A stretch of 53,311 nt of DNA, from contig JBFHFF010000009.1 of NCBI GenBank assembly GCA_041583775.1, forward strand, positions 1 to 53,311. Reading direction: 5' to 3'. Origin of the DNA: Candidatus Moraniibacteriota bacterium. Lineage in GTDB: Bacteria > Patescibacteriota > Minisyncoccia > Moranbacterales > DUUL01. This document shows, piece after piece, positions 1 through 37,486 of this stretch; position 1 is the stretch's first letter; each line of letters starts with the position of its first letter. The notes beneath the pieces were generated by a model that saw nothing but the letters and a program-made list of their open reading frames with translations, searched no databases and was not told the DNA's origin. The translations under genes were made by a program, and so were the position numbers.

Positions 1-1978
1 AAGTGCTACCAATGAGATTGTTTTTCTCACCCTCAAATGCGGTGTAGAAATGTTCTTGTCCAGAATAGAATCTGTACACAGGAACAGAGCCAGCTTCCTG
101 AGTCTTTAATGCGCGGAAAACGGCTCTTTCAGCTCTCCAGATACTGCTATTAAAAACTAGGCCGTCTTTTTCTCCTTCACTTATCGTAATAAAGTGAGAA
201 TTACTCGTACTGTTGTAAAATCTGTAAACAGGATAGTGGTTTCCGATAGGATCAGCTGAGAGAAACTTAGTGTAGCCTATCTGAGGGTTATTCCCCGTAG
301 GACTGTTTATAGCATAGAAAAAGAGTTGATGAGCAATTCCATCTTTAACACCTCCCGGAACATTCCAGAAGAAAGCGTGCTGGTCAACATCCACTCGATA
401 GTCATCGGCGGGAAAACTTTCCACAAATTGTGAATTATTTCCATAGATGTCTGTTTTGTAGACATGAACATCGGTGGGGTCATATGAATCATCATCTTTT
501 GCCCAGCCATTAATTTGACTACTTGTAACAGAATCAATATGACCGTAAGGATCCTTATTTGGCTTCACAACAGTAAAGACTGCTTCAGTAGAGCAGTTGT
601 TTGATTTGTGTTCTTCTGGAACATCTCCATCACCATTGTCTTGATCTTTTGTGCGATCAGCACAGGCCACGATATTGTATACTCCTGGCTCAAGATGATA
701 TTCCCAAAGTTTGAGACCCTCTTCTTCGTGTTTAGGAGGATCGCTAATTTGGATATTTTCCTTCTTGATATTGTCTGTGCCTACATGTTTCCACTCATCA
801 TGAGCATCCTCCTTGTAGCCCTTTGATAAGTAGAAGCGAACTTCCATATCGTCGTGGTCTCCGGCCCAATTAGCTTCGCCGATGTTATCAAACCAAGCAT
901 GCATTTTGACTTCATCGATTGTCTCATATTGGTATTGCTCGACACCTGATGGTGTCTGGAGTTGGAGTTCGGTAACGATGAAATCTGGTTTGCCTGGATC
1001 TGGTGGTTCGGTGGGATTTGAAGAATACCCATAACCAGTTGCATCACTTGCAACAACTCCATCTCCGGCAATAACAATGGCAGGACCAGAATTGTCTGCA
1101 GGAATTTCAATTTCCCGGATTACAGCGTAGTTCATAATATCATCAGCACTTGCGCCAGGACCAAAAATGCTTATAAGAGACCTCCACCAGGATTGCCAGA
1201 AGTGTTCTTCTGGAACTTCTTGGGTTGAATTTGTGGCTTGAGAAATATAGTATACTTCTTCATAAAGCTGGTCACAAATGTCGCTAGCCTGAAGATAGGG
1301 TGGTTTTTTAAGGTCAAACCATCTATCAGCCTCAGAACATTCTCTGCTGGATGGTTCCCAACAGATGTCACCTACACACTTGGCGGTAACTTTTTCAGGA
1401 GTATTGAACGGGGAGTTGTTTTGAATGAAGTCGACTGGGTTGATGAAACCATTGTCACTCCCGTATCCATATCCAGACCAACGATTATTGTCGTCATTAA
1501 AAGGAGATCTTATTCCAAAATGAAGATGCACAGTTCCTTTTCTGTAAGGTCCTATTTCGGCGATCTTCTGATCCTTTGTTACAGTTGAACCGACGGAAAT
1601 GTTTTTTATATGTGCGTATATTGCAGTAAATTTTTCTCCGTTGGCTAACCTATGTTCAATAATCAAAGCACCACCATCAATACAATTGTAGCTATCATCG
1701 TATCCACCGTAACAAGCCACATCCATTCTATTGTGTAAAACGACACCATCAGCAATTGCATAAACGTTATCACCTTCATCAGCTCTAATATCTTGAGCAA
1801 GATGAACGCCTCCAGGAAATGCGGTATTTGTTCCATGCCACCCCAGAAGCAAATCAGTGCTTTCTGTAGGCCAGCAAAATCCGTTTGGCATTGTTCCTCC
1901 CGGACATTCTGCCAGACAATTAGTAGATAAAAAAAATGTGAACGCAACAATCAAAGAATGAATTGTCAGACGAGACAT
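1..1978 (-). CDS. Secreted M23 metallopeptidase with CARDB/Ig-like domains and C-terminal 'VYRFY..HF.T' (DUF5648-like) repeats; 3'-truncated by the window edge (>659 aa)
   Basis: Hand translation from ATG 1978 is open to the edge. Signal peptide MSRLTIHSLIVAFTFFLSTNCLA; M23 motifs HLAQD, YAHI and HLHFGI; CARDB-like PDFIVTEL...SNNCS; GHID..INGWAKD domain; repeats YPVYRFYNSTSNSHFITISEGEK and VPVYRFYSGQEHFYTAFEGEK. GGAGGT SD lies upstream. Missing from the ORF track because there is no stop codon in the window. Confidence 0.88.
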   Translation of the reverse strand, partial: MSRLTIHSLIVAFTFFLSTNCLAECPGGTMPNGFCWPTESTDLLLGWHGTNTAFPGGVHLAQDIRADEGDNVYAIADGVVLHNRMDVACYGGYDDSYNCIDGGALIIEHRLANGEKFTAIYAHIKNISVGSTVTKDQKIAEIGPYRKGTVHLHFGIRSPFNDDNNRWSGYGYGSDNGFINPVDFIQNNSPFNTPEKVTAKCVGDICWEPSSRECSEADRWFDLKKPPYLQASDICDQLYEEVYYISQATNSTQEVPEEHFWQSWWRSLISIFGPGASADDIMNYAVIREIEIPADNSGPAIVIAGDGVVASDATGYGYSSNPTEPPDPGKPDFIVTELQLQTPSGVEQYQYETIDEVKMHAWFDNIGEANWAGDHDDMEVRFYLSKGYKEDAHDEWKHVGTDNIKKENIQISDPPKHEEEGLKLWEYHLEPGVYNIVACADRTKDQDNGDGDVPEEHKSNNCSTEAVFTVVKPNKDPYGHIDSVTSSQINGWAKDDDSYDPTDVHVYKTDIYGNNSQFVESFPADDYRVDVDQHAFFWNVPGGVKDGIAHQLFFYAINSPTGNNPQIGYTKFLSADPIGNHYPVYRFYNSTSNSHFITISEGEKDGLVFNSSIWRAERAVFRALKTQEAGSVPVYRFYSGQEHFYTAFEGEKNNLIGST

Positions 1979-32942: not shown

Positions 32943-32970
32943 TTGACATTTCTGCAAGTTTGTATATAAT
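32943..32970 (+). promoter_or_regulatory. Consensus sigma70 promoter for tRNA-Lys
   Basis: TTGACA-N16-TATAAT. Confidence 0.75.
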
Positions 32971-33067
32971 TAAAAATGTTTGAAAAATGATATTTCTGCA
33001 TTACGCTTCCAAAGCGACATTTTTGATTTTGCAAGAAGTTATTTATTTAAAGATTTTGACAATTTAT

Positions 33068-33143
33068 GCGCGCATAGCTCAGTCGGTAGAGCAACTGCCT
33101 TTTAAGCAGAAGGTCGGGGGTTCAAATCCCTCTGCGCGTACCA
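33068..33143 (+). tRNA. tRNA-Lys (TTT), CCA encoded
   Basis: GCGCGCATAGCTCAGTCGGTAGAGCAACTGCCT-TTT-AAGCAGAAGGTCGGGGGTTCAAATCCCTCTGCGCGTACCA. Confidence 0.96.
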
Positions 33144-33146
33144 AGT

Positions 33147-33177
33147 AAACACGATTATTTCAAATAATCGTGTTTTT
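33147..33177 (+). terminator. Terminator after tRNA-Lys
   Basis: AAACACGATTATTT-C-AAATAATCGTGTTTTT. Confidence 0.75.
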
Positions 33178-33188
33178 GTTTATTAAAA

Positions 33189-33224
33189 TAGATACCTCTA
33201 TAGAGGTATCTATAGAGGTATCTA
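33189..33224. repeat. Three copies of the 12-mer TAGAGGTATCTA (one inverted, two direct)
   Basis: TAGATACCTCTA-TAGAGGTATCTA-TAGAGGTATCTA; the first 24 bp are a perfect palindrome. Confidence 0.9.
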
Positions 33225-33416
33225 CGAAAACTTTGCAGTTATAATATTGTTTAGTTGAAGAGCTAACGGATTAACGAGTTATGAAGAAAAACTAATTTTC
33301 AATGTTCGAGGATGACCAAATGGGAAGTTCTTGAATTTGAACATTTCTAAATTAGAAAATTGAAAATTAAGTATATCTTCCTCTTGACAATGTATTAAAA
33401 TCATCTAATATTAAAT

Positions 33417-33501
33417 TGTGAAAAGGGCAATGTCCCTTTCGCATAATGAATCCTCCTCCCTTCTAACCCCTGTTGCATAAATATTTGCACGGGGGTTTTT
33501 T
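33417..33501 (+). ncRNA. Candidate small RNA 1 with anti-SD UCCUCCUCCC tract
   Basis: TTGACA(33384)-N16-TAATAT; 5' hairpin TGTGAAAAGGG/CCCTTTCGCA; TCCTCCTCCCTTCT; terminator AACCCCTGTTGCA/TGCACGGGGGTT followed by T-run. Confidence 0.65.
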
Positions 33502-33620
33502 AAAGGTTTTTTAAAAAAATTTTTAAATTATGCTGTTTTTTCAAGTTCAAGAAATTATTAGAACTTTTAGGCTAAGGCATAAATTATTTGACAATAATTT
33601 TAAATCCTATATCTTAAATA

Positions 33621-33691
33621 AGAGCAAGAGAAAATATTCTCCCTCCTCCTCCTTTCCCGTTGGACCTGAACATTGGTCCAACGGGTTTTTT
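33621..33691 (+). ncRNA. Candidate small RNA 2 with anti-SD CCUCCUCCUCC tract
   Basis: TTGACA(33588)-N16-TATCTT; hairpin GAGAA/TTCTC; CCTCCTCCTCCTTT; perfect 11-bp terminator CCCGTTGGACC/GGTCCAACGGG followed by T6. Confidence 0.65.
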
Positions 33692-33794
33692 ATTATCTTA
33701 AGATATCAAGCCAACTCATACAACAAAGACAAAACTTATTTTTTATTTCTTTTCGGACAAGCTTTATGACACAACTTTTTTTAAAAATCAAACA

Positions 33795-33823
33795 TTGAAA
33801 ACTATTAACAAAAATTGTATAAT
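33795..33823 (+). promoter_or_regulatory. Candidate dnaE promoter
   Basis: TTGAAA-N17-TATAAT. Confidence 0.6.
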
Positions 33824-33907
33824 GAAAAATGCTATGTAGAAAAAACGAAAAGCTTTTTTTGGGGGATTCAAAGAGGGCTTTATTAATTTAAAACGACATT
33901 CCTTTCT

Positions 33908-36900
33908 ATGTCTTCCAAAACAACAAAACAAAAATTTACACATCTTCATGTCCACACGCATTACAGCCTCTTGGACGGTCTAGGAAAAATAGACGATCTT
34001 TTGGACCGTGTAGAAGAGCTTGGAATGGATTCCATCGCAATTACGGACCATGGGACAATGTATGGAGTGCCAGAGTTCTATGACAAAGCAACTCAAAGAG
34101 GGATAAAGCCTATTCTGGGATGTGAAATGTATGTTGCACCAAACGGACTTCATAACAAACAACCACGGGTTGATGATGAGCGCTATCATCTAACCATTCT
34201 AGCTGAAACAAATGAGGGCTATAGAAATCTGATGAAACTAGCCACTATAGCCCACCTTGAAGGTTTTTATTATAAACCGCGAATTGATCTTTCTGTTTTA
34301 AAAAAACACGCGAAAGGACTGATTGCCCTTAGTGGTTGTGTTCAAGGAGAGGTTGCCCAACTTGTTGTTAATGGAAAATATGATGAGGCAAAAAGCAAAG
34401 CACTTGAATATCAAAAGATTTTGGGTGTTGGTAACTTTTTTTTGGAGATTCAACACTTGCCTACTCTCGACAAACAGGTCATTTCAAATAAAGGTCTAAA
34501 AAAAATATCAAAAGAAACTGGAATTCCACTTGTAGCTTCCGCTGACCTTCATTATGTAAACCCTGAAGACAAAGATGTTCAAGACATTCTTCTGTGTTTG
34601 CAAACTGGACGGAAAAAAGATGAACCAAATAGAATGACGATGTTGGAATTTGATTTATACCTCAAAAGCCCAGAGGAGATGTGGGAAGCTTTCAAAGACA
34701 CGCCAGAAGCACTTGAAAATACCCAAAAAATCGCGAAGCGTTGCAATGTGACAATTGAATTTGGAAACACCAAACTTCCCCGTTTTGAAGTTCCTGAGGG
34801 GTTTACTTCAGATTCATATCTTTTGAAACTTTGCGAAGACGGAATAAAAAAAAGATATAAAGACGGAGAATATACAGATGAACATAAAACCCGTTTGGAT
34901 TTTGAACTTGGGGTTATTTCAAGAATGGGATTCTCAGGATATTTCTTGATTGTTCAAGATTTTATGAATTGGGCAAAAAATGAGGGCATTGTTGTTGGAC
35001 CAGGCCGTGGAAGTGCTGCCGGAAGTTTTGTTTCATATTTAACAGGAATTACAAATCTCGATCCGCTTCAATACGGACTTCTTTTCGAGCGTTTTCTGAA
35101 TCCAGACAGAATTTCAATGCCTGATGTTGATGCTGATTTTGCAGATCATCGTCGAGATGAAGTTTTACAATATTGCCGAAAAAAATATGGTTACGATCAT
35201 GTAGCACAAATTATCACTTTCGGAACAATGGCTGCAAGGGCTGCAATTCGTGATGTTGGGCGTGTACTAAATGTTGAATATGGTTATTGTGATAAATTGG
35301 CAAAAATGGTTCCCCAATTCACAAATCTCCCAAAAGCACTTGAGACTTCAAAGGAATTGATCATGGAATATAACAGCAACTCAAACGCTAAACAAATTAT
35401 TGATGCTGCTCTCCGCCTTGAAGGAGTTGCTCGCCATGCATCTATGCATGCTTGTGGTGTTGTTATCACAGCTGAACCTGTTGTAGAATATTCCCCTTTG
35501 CAATATATGACAGGCAAGAAAGGGAGTGAACCTTCAATTGTAACTCAATATGCCGCCTCATCCAAGGCGTCATATGTAGAAAAAATTGGTCTACTCAAAA
35601 TGGATTTCTTGGGACTAAAAAATCTTACTATTATTGAAAATTCTTTAAAGATAATCAAAAAAACTACTGGTGACATCATCAACATTGATGAATTGCCTCT
35701 TGATGATGTCGATTCTTATAAACTACTCCAAGACGGTTGCACAACGGGAGTTTTTCAAATGGAGTCCTCTGGAATGAAAAGATGGCTCAAAAAACTAAAG
35801 CCAAATGTTTTTGAAGATATCATCGCAATGGTTGCTTTGTATCGCCCAGGGCCTATGGAGTGGATTCCTGATTTTATTGACGGAAAACACGGAAAAAGAA
35901 AAATTGATTATTTTCACCCAAAATTAAAACCAATCATTGAAAATACCTACGGTGTGGTCGTTTATCAAGAGCAAGTGATGAAAATCTCTCAAGAACTTGC
36001 AGGCTTCACTCCTGGCGAAGCAGATGTCTTGAGAAAGGCAATGGGTAAAAAAATAGTGGAGATGATTGAGAAACAAAAACAAAAGTTTATTGAGGGTTGT
36101 ATCAAGAATAAAGTATCTCAAGAACTTGCAGAAAAAGTATTTTCTTTTATTGAGCCTTTTGCTGGTTATGGATTTAATCGTTCCCATGCTGCTTGCTATG
36201 CTTTAATTGGTTATCAAACAGCTTATCTAAAAGCCCACTATCCTGCTCAATTTATCGCTGCGCTCTTAAATTCAGACAAAGATGATATTGATAGAATCGC
36301 AATCGAAGTTGAAGAATCAAGGGAAATGGGAATTGAGGTTCTCCCCCCCGACATCAATGAAAGTTTTAAAGATTTCGCTGTGATTATGCCTGAAAAAGAT
36401 GCAAAAAAACAAGCTCAACGAATTCGTTTTGGACTAGAAGCAATTAAGGGTGTTGGTTCTCATATCGCAGAAAGTATCATTATAGAACGAGAAAAAAATG
36501 GCAAATTCAAAGACATTATTGACCTATTAGAAAGAGTTCAGGACAAAGATATGAACAAAAAATCACTCGAGGCGTTGGCTATGAGTGGTGCTTTAGATTG
36601 CATTATTGCAAGAAATAAGGTCTTACAAAACATTGAGACTTTGCTTACTTATGCGAAAGATTTCCAAAAAAATGCCTTAGCTGGACAATCATCTCTTTTC
36701 GGAATGATGGATGGAAAGGCTGACGCAGTGCCCAAAATCACGCTATACGAAGCTGACGCAGTCCCTAAAAAACAAAGATTGTCTTGGGAAAAAACTCTAT
36801 TAGGACTTTATATCTCAGATCATCCCTTGCGTGGCTATCAAGAATATTTCAAAAAATTTGCAACACCAATCCGAGAACTTTCTGCTGAACATGTTGATAG

Positions 36901-37486
36901 AAAAATCACAGTTGGTGGAATTATCACAAAAATGCAAAAAATCTACACTAGAAGGAATCAATTGATGTATTTTGCAACAATTGAAGATGGAATTGGAAAA
37001 GTTGAAGCATTGATTTTTCCAAAAACAATTGAACGAACTGGAGATATTTGGGTTGAAGAAAAAATATTACTACTAACAGGGAGACTTTCAGAAAAAGACG
37101 GGGAACTTAAATTGCTCACTGAGGAAGCTTTGGAAGTTGACGAAAAAGAACTTTGGCAATACAAGAAAAAAGAAATTAAAGAGACGACTCCTGTAAGCGA
37201 GAAGTTTAAAAATAGATCCTTTACAAACGCGTCTTCTCCGAAATCTTCGAAAGAAGAAACTATCCAAAAAAACATTCTAATCACTATCAATACTGGTTGT
37301 GACAAAGTTACTCTTGAAAAGATTTCCAAAATCCTTCTTACCAACAAAAAAGGCCTTTGTAGTGTTTTTATTACAGCTCCGGAAATTGGAGGAAAACTAG
37401 AAACCCCCCACCGCATCACTTTCAATCTAGAGACAATAGACAAAATCAAAGCGATTGTTGGGAATGAGAATGTTGTTTTTGAGTAG
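33908..37486 (+). CDS. dnaE: DNA polymerase III alpha subunit
   Basis: PHP HLHVHTHYSLLDG, GPGRGSAAGS, RISMPDVDADF, KMDFLGLKNL, YGFNRSH, OB fold. Confidence 0.98.
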   Translation: MSSKTTKQKFTHLHVHTHYSLLDGLGKIDDLLDRVEELGMDSIAITDHGTMYGVPEFYDKATQRGIKPILGCEMYVAPNGLHNKQPRVDDERYHLTILAETNEGYRNLMKLATIAHLEGFYYKPRIDLSVLKKHAKGLIALSGCVQGEVAQLVVNGKYDEAKSKALEYQKILGVGNFFLEIQHLPTLDKQVISNKGLKKISKETGIPLVASADLHYVNPEDKDVQDILLCLQTGRKKDEPNRMTMLEFDLYLKSPEEMWEAFKDTPEALENTQKIAKRCNVTIEFGNTKLPRFEVPEGFTSDSYLLKLCEDGIKKRYKDGEYTDEHKTRLDFELGVISRMGFSGYFLIVQDFMNWAKNEGIVVGPGRGSAAGSFVSYLTGITNLDPLQYGLLFERFLNPDRISMPDVDADFADHRRDEVLQYCRKKYGYDHVAQIITFGTMAARAAIRDVGRVLNVEYGYCDKLAKMVPQFTNLPKALETSKELIMEYNSNSNAKQIIDAALRLEGVARHASMHACGVVITAEPVVEYSPLQYMTGKKGSEPSIVTQYAASSKASYVEKIGLLKMDFLGLKNLTIIENSLKIIKKTTGDIINIDELPLDDVDSYKLLQDGCTTGVFQMESSGMKRWLKKLKPNVFEDIIAMVALYRPGPMEWIPDFIDGKHGKRKIDYFHPKLKPIIENTYGVVVYQEQVMKISQELAGFTPGEADVLRKAMGKKIVEMIEKQKQKFIEGCIKNKVSQELAEKVFSFIEPFAGYGFNRSHAACYALIGYQTAYLKAHYPAQFIAALLNSDKDDIDRIAIEVEESREMGIEVLPPDINESFKDFAVIMPEKDAKKQAQRIRFGLEAIKGVGSHIAESIIIEREKNGKFKDIIDLLERVQDKDMNKKSLEALAMSGALDCIIARNKVLQNIETLLTYAKDFQKNALAGQSSLFGMMDGKADAVPKITLYEADAVPKKQRLSWEKTLLGLYISDHPLRGYQEYFKKFATPIRELSAEHVDRKITVGGIITKMQKIYTRRNQLMYFATIEDGIGKVEALIFPKTIERTGDIWVEEKILLLTGRLSEKDGELKLLTEEALEVDEKELWQYKKKEIKETTPVSEKFKNRSFTNASSPKSSKEETIQKNILITINTGCDKVTLEKISKILLTNKKGLCSVFITAPEIGGKLETPHRITFNLETIDKIKAIVGNENVVFE

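Follow-up and report, generated by a model that had tools for sequence, protein, structure and literature searches.

Predicted tandem small RNAs with exposed anti-Shine-Dalgarno tracts upstream of dnaE, and a family-wide CU-loop RNA, in a Moraniibacteriota genome

RoxS/RsaE and LhrC of the Firmicutes are short small RNAs (sRNAs) that act independently of Hfq, pairing exposed C/U-rich motifs (CCCC or UCCC, carried in loops) with G-rich ribosome-binding sites. LhrC is present as sibling copies, and the hosts use a Shine-Dalgarno (SD) sequence on most genes. The present analysis concerns two predicted sRNA genes, each with an exposed CU-rich tract resembling the anti-SD end of 16S rRNA, located between the tRNA-Lys and dnaE genes of Candidatus Moraniibacteriota bacterium (assembly GCA_041583775.1, contig JBFHFF010000009.1, positions 1 to 53,311; this stretch of 53,311 nucleotides is hereafter the window). 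Among described systems of other phyla, the cuckoo RNAs of Alphaproteobacteria (CcsR / RSs0680 / SmelA075-type) are presented in the accessible text of PMC4615179 as 2-4 adjacent hairpins with the motif in each loop. The same text reads the motif as anti-SD and reports tandem clusters, stems that vary freely and conservation that is lost beyond the genus; the known CU-rich sRNAs it covers act on mRNAs (PMC4615179).

The cuckoo motif as given there, CCUCCUCCC, was found exactly in unit 1 of the window, while unit 2 carried CCCUCCUCCUCC followed by U. Tandem copies and freely varying stems were further points of likeness, and another RNA of the same genome, conserved across the family (C1 RNA, described below), displayed its motif in a hairpin loop. 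The cuckoo multi-hairpin layout was not seen in the window units, which have one motif each, placed in the single-stranded linker that joins a 5' hairpin to a terminator. They also come from Patescibacteria and from an SD-poor host in which no Hfq was found, and no Rfam model matched them. Compared with RoxS/RsaE and LhrC, the units had a similarly exposed C/U-rich seed, with no Rfam match to them over the spacer at E <=10. No Rfam family matched the units at the gathering score, and the matches obtained at E <=10 (microRNA, small nucleolar RNA and PyrR models, 15-31 bits) were noise. The units were placed outside the cuckoo and RoxS families because their motif lies in a linker instead of loops, their phylum is another one and no curated model matched; the prediction that their mode of action is nonetheless that of anti-SD seed sRNAs of the cuckoo or RoxS type is evenly balanced.

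The nearest named relatives of the DnaE encoded beside the units were Patescibacteria metagenome-assembled genomes (MAGs) labelled Moranbacteria or Moraniibacteriota, which agrees with the Candidate Phyla Radiation (CPR) setting supposed in an earlier reading made from the letters alone (the sequence-only reading). That reading knew of no comparable sRNA in the CPR, and no regulatory sRNA of Patescibacteria was described in Rfam or, as far as titles and abstracts tell, in the literature.

Architecture of the two units

Two plus-strand units were located inside the 764-bp spacer between tRNA-Lys(UUU) (33068-33143) and dnaE (33908-37486). Both displayed a TTGACA-16-(-10) promoter and a 5' hairpin, followed by a CCUCCUCC tract free of pairing and by a strong plus-strand terminator, and scans and folds found every part of this architecture where the sequence-only reading had placed it. 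The parts are as follows (MFE, minimum free energy).

33384-33411, plus strand: unit 1 promoter, -35 TTGACA at 33384-33389, 16-nt spacer, -10 TAATAT at 33406-33411 (consensus scan, 10/12 matches)
33418-33442, plus strand: unit 1 5' hairpin (MFE and centroid fold)
33443-33464, plus strand: unit 1 unpaired 22-nt linker, with CCUCCUCCC at 33452-33460 (unpaired in MFE and centroid)
33465-33501, plus strand: unit 1 intrinsic terminator, bulged G+C-rich stem 33465-33497, T6 at 33496-33501 (fold)
33588-33615, plus strand: unit 2 promoter, TTGACA at 33588-33593, 16-nt spacer, TATCTT at 33610-33615 (consensus scan, 10/12 matches)
33622-33645, plus strand: unit 2 weak 5' hairpin (fold)
33641-33655, plus strand: unit 2 CU tract CCCUCCUCCUCCUUU, with CCCUCCUCCUCC at 33641-33652 (33646-33655 unpaired in MFE and centroid)
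33656-33691, plus strand: unit 2 intrinsic terminator, 11 bp (8 G-C pairs), stem 33656-33685, 8-nt loop, T6 (terminator scan and fold)

The position of the -10 elements would set the transcript starts near 33418 (unit 1) and 33622 (unit 2). Both folds were more stable than all of 200 shuffles (z = -4.3 for unit 1, z = -5.7 for unit 2), and the terminator hairpin of unit 1 reached -15.6 kcal/mol in a promoter-to-terminator scan. Stems of the two units had no sequence in common, as had been remarked before, and T runs were present 3' of the hairpins on the plus strand only. The earlier comparison with the tRNA-Lys promoter also held, since that promoter (32943-32970, 12/12 consensus matches) has a 16-nt spacer too. 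A promoter and a Rho-independent terminator of their own around a short non-coding transcript, as predicted here, together with an accessible seed (CU tracts unpaired in MFE and centroid), are features of generic trans-acting sRNAs, and the units are most likely two separate predicted sRNA genes, ~84 and ~70 nt long and species-specific.

The pattern TTGACA-N16-18-TANNNT-N20-50-CCTCC was found twice in the window, against 0.04 occurrences expected, and none of 100 shuffles reached two. Across the genome (assembly G000: 1.16 Mb, 15 contigs, 34% G+C), about 56 sites with CCTCCTCC or its complement were listed, mostly in coding sequence; among these listed sites, a terminator followed only the two in the units. 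TTGACA-N16-18-TAnnnT sites were concentrated between genes, with 88 of 124 falling in the 15% of the sequence to which a crude open reading frame (ORF) map assigned no gene. The promoter-to-terminator scan recovered 5S rRNA and tRNA genes in addition to both units, and sigma-70-type promoters appear to be genuinely used in this genome.

Units running from promoter to terminator were also observed on contig C8. Three near-identical promoter-leader-terminator units of ~55 nt (G000:C8:30328, 33624 and 34414, plus strand; TTGACA-16-TATTGT followed by AUAAGUAAUCUCAAAAGAGA) formed a second sRNA-like sibling set, without a CU tract. Another promoter-to-terminator unit (G000:C8:28866-29010, plus strand) carried GCCUCCUAC immediately 5' of a long-range terminator stem and was not found in genomes G001-G003, G004 or G008.

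Lying upstream of dnaE on the same strand, the units could instead be cis-acting leaders or attenuators of this gene, or they could encode tiny peptides: unit 1 holds a plus-strand ORF of 16 codons, another of 79 codons spans unit 2 and a 25-codon ORF is found on the minus strand, and TCC TCC TCC is in frame in both plus-strand ORFs. Either role was considered highly improbable. The presence downstream of unit 2 of a promoter of dnaE's own, conserved in the genus, makes a leader role unlikely and would leave dnaE independent of the promoters of the units; no alternative antiterminator pairing was seen in the folds. As for peptides, judged on anatomy, the 79-codon ORF passes through the strong terminator, and units of the same design in genome G008 (below) shared no ORF with those of the window.

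A family-wide CU-loop RNA convergent with pth

The promoter-to-terminator scan also flagged an RNA of ~105 nt on contig C1 (G000:C1:166699-166804, minus strand), preceded by its own TTGACA-17-TAAACT promoter. This C1 RNA consisted of a long hairpin-terminator with UCCCUCCUA in the apical loop and a T run at the end. It was 82-86% identical in all three same-genus genomes (G001, G002 and G003), and their alignment kept all 31 predicted pairs together with an invariant 15-nt apical loop.

A covariance model (R3) built from the four same-genus sequences matched once in each of 20 genomes among the 26 family relatives, representing 13 of 13 genera. No match was obtained in 130 genomes of the order's other families, where distant forms may be missed as the model was trained on one genus. 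In an independent analysis of the 20 sequences (MAFFT/RNAalifold), compensatory changes were observed in 14 of the 16 basal-stem pairs, while the loop motif UCCCUCCUA was almost invariant. Nineteen of the 20 loci had a promoter with at least 10/12 matches 50-100 nt upstream on the CU strand, and 19 of 20 were convergent with pth. Rfam held no family for this RNA.

The pth-convergent RNA and the window units share their genome, promoter type and CCUCC-centred motif, and UCCCUCCU in unit 2 corresponds to eight of the nine bases of the conserved UCCCUCCUA loop motif. They differ in that the former is single-copy, syntenic with pth, conserved in the family and exposes its motif within the loop of a terminator hairpin, whereas the units are species-specific. 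R3 did not score the window units at E <=1, its only matches in G000 being the C1 locus on both strands.

The covarying stem with its fixed loop, the promoters that the loci have of their own and the family-wide occurrence show that selection acts in this lineage on a CCUCC-centred motif exposed by a small RNA with independent transcription. The sequence-only reading had proposed that exposed anti-SD tracts are selected here, and the family-conserved UCCCUCCUA loop RNA lends this proposal strong indirect support. The pth-convergent RNA is a firmer discovery than the window units themselves.

Turnover of the spacer and distribution of the units

The units lie in a variable spacer, of which the flanking features are given below; the region upstream of dnaE was compared at 25 family loci.

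33068-33175, plus strand: tRNA-Lys(UUU) and its terminator, left border of the variable spacer (ARAGORN, Rfam, terminator scan)
33188-33224, no strand assigned: palindrome ctatagaggtatctatagaggtatc (self-BLAST; common to G002)
33795-33823, plus strand: dnaE own promoter TTGAAA-17-TATAAT (scan; same promoter upstream of dnaE in G001, G002 and G003)

The results of this comparison, like those on target prediction given in the next section, weigh against a function of the units as sRNAs. A BLAST search with the 317-nt unit region against 60 relatives returned only matches to AT-rich spacer. The units were missing from the syntenic spacer in all three same-genus genomes: G001 kept the tRNA-Lys–dnaE order, with a small SD-led ORF and a terminator in the spacer; G002 had the tRNA flank and the palindrome in common, followed by an unrelated 1.25-kb insert; and G003 had other genes at this position. 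Within the genus, the only conserved part of the spacer was the dnaE promoter (33795-33823). A covariance model of CU tract and terminator built from the two units (R1) returned only themselves in their own genome and nothing in G001-G003, and four weak matches in 150 genomes of the order, all without CU tracts. A second model, built from five sequences (R2), was rejected as a source of new members since its extra matches (27 family genomes, 151 order genomes) were gene-end terminators without promoters. The promoter-plus-CCTCC pattern occurred 31 times in 26 relatives against 17 in a reversed control, a modest excess; the matches included loci of G013 (L046), G005 (L050), G010 (L068) and G018 (L054). 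A co-occurring related strain diverged from 33224 onwards, at the palindrome, as judged from loose contig ends in DNA runs, which points to a region that turns over fast and could hold neutral DNA. DNA contigs of four runs, all from a single study from which this assembly may stem, were identical over 33000-34000.

Other repeats and partial likenesses were noted along the way. The G002 spacer (locus L010, G002:C13) contained a repeated and inverted gctggagcggg...cccggtcccac element (~140-175, 880-925 and 1075-1105), possibly a small mobile repeat. In the window, a 44-nt stretch with TAACGAGT-like repeats (33239-33282), adjoining GAATTTT-type tandem repeats, recurred at G000:C3:16601-16644 and in G002. 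At locus L052 (G010:C2, 807-857, minus strand), UGAAUCCUACUCUCCCUAAACCCG and a hairpin resembled UGAAUCCUCCUCCCUUCUAACCCC of unit 1, with no T run and 14.7 bits under R1. An exact 19-mer of unit 1 had three matches in Joint Genome Institute (JGI) metagenome contigs, which were set aside as unrelated contigs of 48-57% GC.

Only one of the 26 family relatives, G008 from another genus, harbored a comparable tandem pair. Its two units, 130 nt apart between tRNA-Gly and a lipoprotein gene, each had a TTGACA promoter, a 5' hairpin and a strong terminator, with a free ACCUCC or UCCUCUCCU as tract. The homologous units that the sequence-only reading asked for in relatives were represented by the G008 pair, while in the three same-genus genomes they were missing both from the syntenic spacer and genome-wide; the conservation in relatives expected of generic sRNAs was not observed for the two window units. 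Rfam had no family for the G008 units, nor for a unit of G006 that was dropped as a member, its CCUCCC being paired in the MFE structure. Locus L070 (G008:C16, ~1340-1460, plus strand) contained a 25-codon ORF with a GAGGAGG SD, convergent with the second G008 unit and entering its terminator; its peptide is hydrophilic and therefore not a typical type I toxin.

These observations bear on the possibility that the units are neutral or decaying DNA, a hypervariable spacer having piled up promoter-like and terminator-like pieces and minus-strand relics of ribosome-binding sites (GGAGGAGG). Such an origin would account for a spacer that differs in each of the three same-genus genomes and, from 33224, in the co-occurring strain, and for units without sequence conservation. 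It would also fit the minus strand of unit 1, where a hairpin, GGGAGGAGG, 7 nt, an ATG and the 25-codon ORF follow one another as in real SD-led genes (e.g., C7:48234). The minus strand of unit 2, on the other hand, has no start codon at SD distance, and T runs adjoin the hairpins on the plus strand only. Although their stems are unrelated, both units retain, on one and the same strand, a perfect -35 with a 16-nt spacer, a CU tract free of pairing and T6 (2 against 0.04 expected). A pair of the same design is found independently in G008, and the motif is under purifying selection in the family-wide RNA. Neutral origin was regarded as rather unlikely.

Shine-Dalgarno usage, 16S tail and proposed function

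Of 234 genes whose ATG start was unambiguous, 9 had GGAG or GAGG at -18 to -3, below the level of control windows, and positions -20 to -1 of these genes consisted of 45-60% A. Before the first start of ORFs of at least 100 aa, GGAGG, AGGAG or GGGAG was present in 47 of 981, against 18 in each of two control windows, and a small positional SD peak was displayed at -14 to -9. From these counts, about 3-5% of genes are SD-led, and the genome is SD-poor, as the sequence-only reading had stated. The 59 most convincing SD-led starts included those of bS21, HU, an N-methyl pilin-like protein, an FG-GAP/dockerin protein, an M23 peptidase-domain protein and a methyltransferase; many of the 59 proteins had signal-peptide-like N-termini. 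The bS21 gene, rpsU (G000:C10:29829-30083), had a strong SD (AGAAGGGAGG) despite the SD-poor genome, its product scoring marginally for the Pfam family (26.8 bits against a cut-off of 27). On contig C11 (4.9 kb) and at C7:47-50.5 kb, each listed gene was SD-led with a signal-peptide-like N-terminus; the G+C content of C11 was slightly raised (36.8%), and it could be mobile DNA or a binning guest.

No assembled 16S gene was found anywhere in the G000 MAG, so that the organism's own anti-SD had to be derived from relatives. The 16S 3' end was GGAUCACCUCCUUUCUA in both full-length 16S genes of the family (G004 and G010), which indicates that the canonical anti-SD end is retained. On contig C2 (~119.8-123.2 kb, minus strand), a 23S-like sequence and a 5S rRNA gene with its own promoter were present. 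Similarity of the units to the 16S tail extended beyond CCUCC: CUCCUCCCUUCUA of unit 1 equalled 11 of 13 positions of the family 16S 3' tail CACCUCCUUUCUA, and the 9-mer CCUCCUUUC of unit 2 matched the tail at nine of nine.

In Flavobacteriia, the 16S tail is concealed by bS21, and rpsU owes its autoregulation to its SD (PMC7797042, PMC9976891, PMC13000453, as far as their accessible text goes). The present genome resembles those of Bacteroidia as presented there: it is SD-poor with A-rich start contexts, its family keeps the CCUCC 16S tail and rpsU is among its few strongly SD-led genes. The described system differs in being a protein-based sequestration, and anti-SD-like sRNAs are not mentioned in the abstracts of PMC7797042, PMC9976891 and PMC13000453. 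In this lineage, too, the 16S tail may be hidden in the manner of Bacteroidia. If it is, the meaning of its SD sites would become doubtful.

The function preferred here for the window units is that of lineage-specific sibling sRNAs pairing with the minority of SD-led host mRNAs, a proposal that could equally hold or fail; their transcription, pairing, repression and target identity were all inferred. Each unit would be transcribed from its own sigma-70-type promoter and ended by its own intrinsic terminator. The working part would be the single-stranded CU tract, which copies the anti-SD end of 16S rRNA and would most likely pair with purine-rich AAAGGAGG-type ribosome-binding sites such as those on ~3-5% of the genes. 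Once paired, an mRNA would be closed to the 30S subunit or become open to decay, and the RNAs would selectively repress, with no need of Hfq, those genes of the host itself that are SD-led. Neither an Hfq nor a CsrA gene was found in the assembly, which is 95.5% complete, so the action would be chaperone-independent or rely on a protein not known so far.

Within the set of 59 SD-led starts, perfect complementarity over 10-11 nt was found between unit 1 and the ribosome-binding sites of rpsU (AGAAGGGAGG) and of a gene for an 88-aa protein (AGGAGGATTCA), and between unit 2 and that of the FG-GAP/dockerin gene (AAAGGAGGAGG). As any CU tract fits any SD, these predicted pairings are weak evidence. 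A genome-wide duplex target scan was rejected because it was swamped by glycine-rich coding sequence, so that its predictions are not specific. Perfect targets of the conserved-loop 9-mer (TAGGAGGGA) preceded ATG 13 times, which is no enrichment over the 10 of the control.

The sequence-only reading had favored a defensive role, in which the RNAs silence SD-led foreign mRNAs, from phages or horizontally acquired genes, and spare the SD-less genes of the host. The SD-poor host and the fast-changing spacer beside a tRNA gene would suit it, as islands often sit beside tRNA genes, and so would the SD-led genes on small contigs of uncertain origin, including all three listed genes of C11. The SD-led minority nevertheless comprises native genes, among them core genes (bS21, HU and a pilin-like protein) and genes of secreted proteins. 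Silencing would not be selective for foreign messages, and the first targets of an anti-SD RNA would be genes of the host. No link of the units with phage or defence genes was seen; their neighbours are eno, tRNA-Lys and dnaE, and neither defence nor mobile genes lie beside them. For the family-wide RNA that shares the motif, a single copy, synteny with pth and vertical conservation fit housekeeping regulation better than defence. The defence idea received no support and was considered very unlikely.

The extended likeness to the 16S tail (11 of 13 positions in unit 1, nine contiguous bases in unit 2) raised another possibility, namely that the RNAs are decoys that copy the tail and titrate a factor holding or processing it, such as bS21, S1 or a 3'-end maturation nuclease. 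The decoy model is kept alive by the strong rpsU SD in an SD-poor genome, a parallel to the sequestration of the tail by bS21 described for Flavobacteriia, and it agrees with the lack of enrichment of the conserved-loop target before ATG. In a tract so rich in C and U, the likeness could still be due to chance. Outside CCUCCU, the conserved loop motif UCCCUCCUA is unlike the 16S tail, and the known CU-rich sRNAs, in the accessible text of PMC4615179, target mRNAs. Titration was held to be decidedly unlikely as the role of the units.

A broader combination of mRNA pairing and titration can be envisaged, in which the conserved pth-convergent RNA and its fast-evolving siblings would form an RNA layer deciding when the few SD-led messages are translated, by masking their SDs or by competing for partners of the 16S tail. 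The messages concerned would be those of rpsU, the nucleoid protein, the pilin and secreted proteins, possibly also SD-led genes of incoming phages. Such a layer is an unlikely, speculative construction; if true, SD-dependent and SD-independent translation would be switched globally by an anti-SD RNA.

Patescibacteria have tiny genomes with few regulators and cannot be grown alone, which makes sequence-based leads to their regulation valuable. The strong SD of rpsU in an SD-poor genome raises the question of whether the 16S tail is hidden in this lineage as in Bacteroidia. The pth-convergent RNA constitutes a covariation-supported family that can be searched for in metatranscriptomes, and the species-specific tandem units would exemplify siblings that arise and vanish rapidly. 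Should the CU-tract RNAs prove real, anti-SD seed RNAs also arise where most genes have given up their SD sites, and in such an SD-poor cell an anti-SD seed would address a small, defined set of genes instead of nearly every mRNA.

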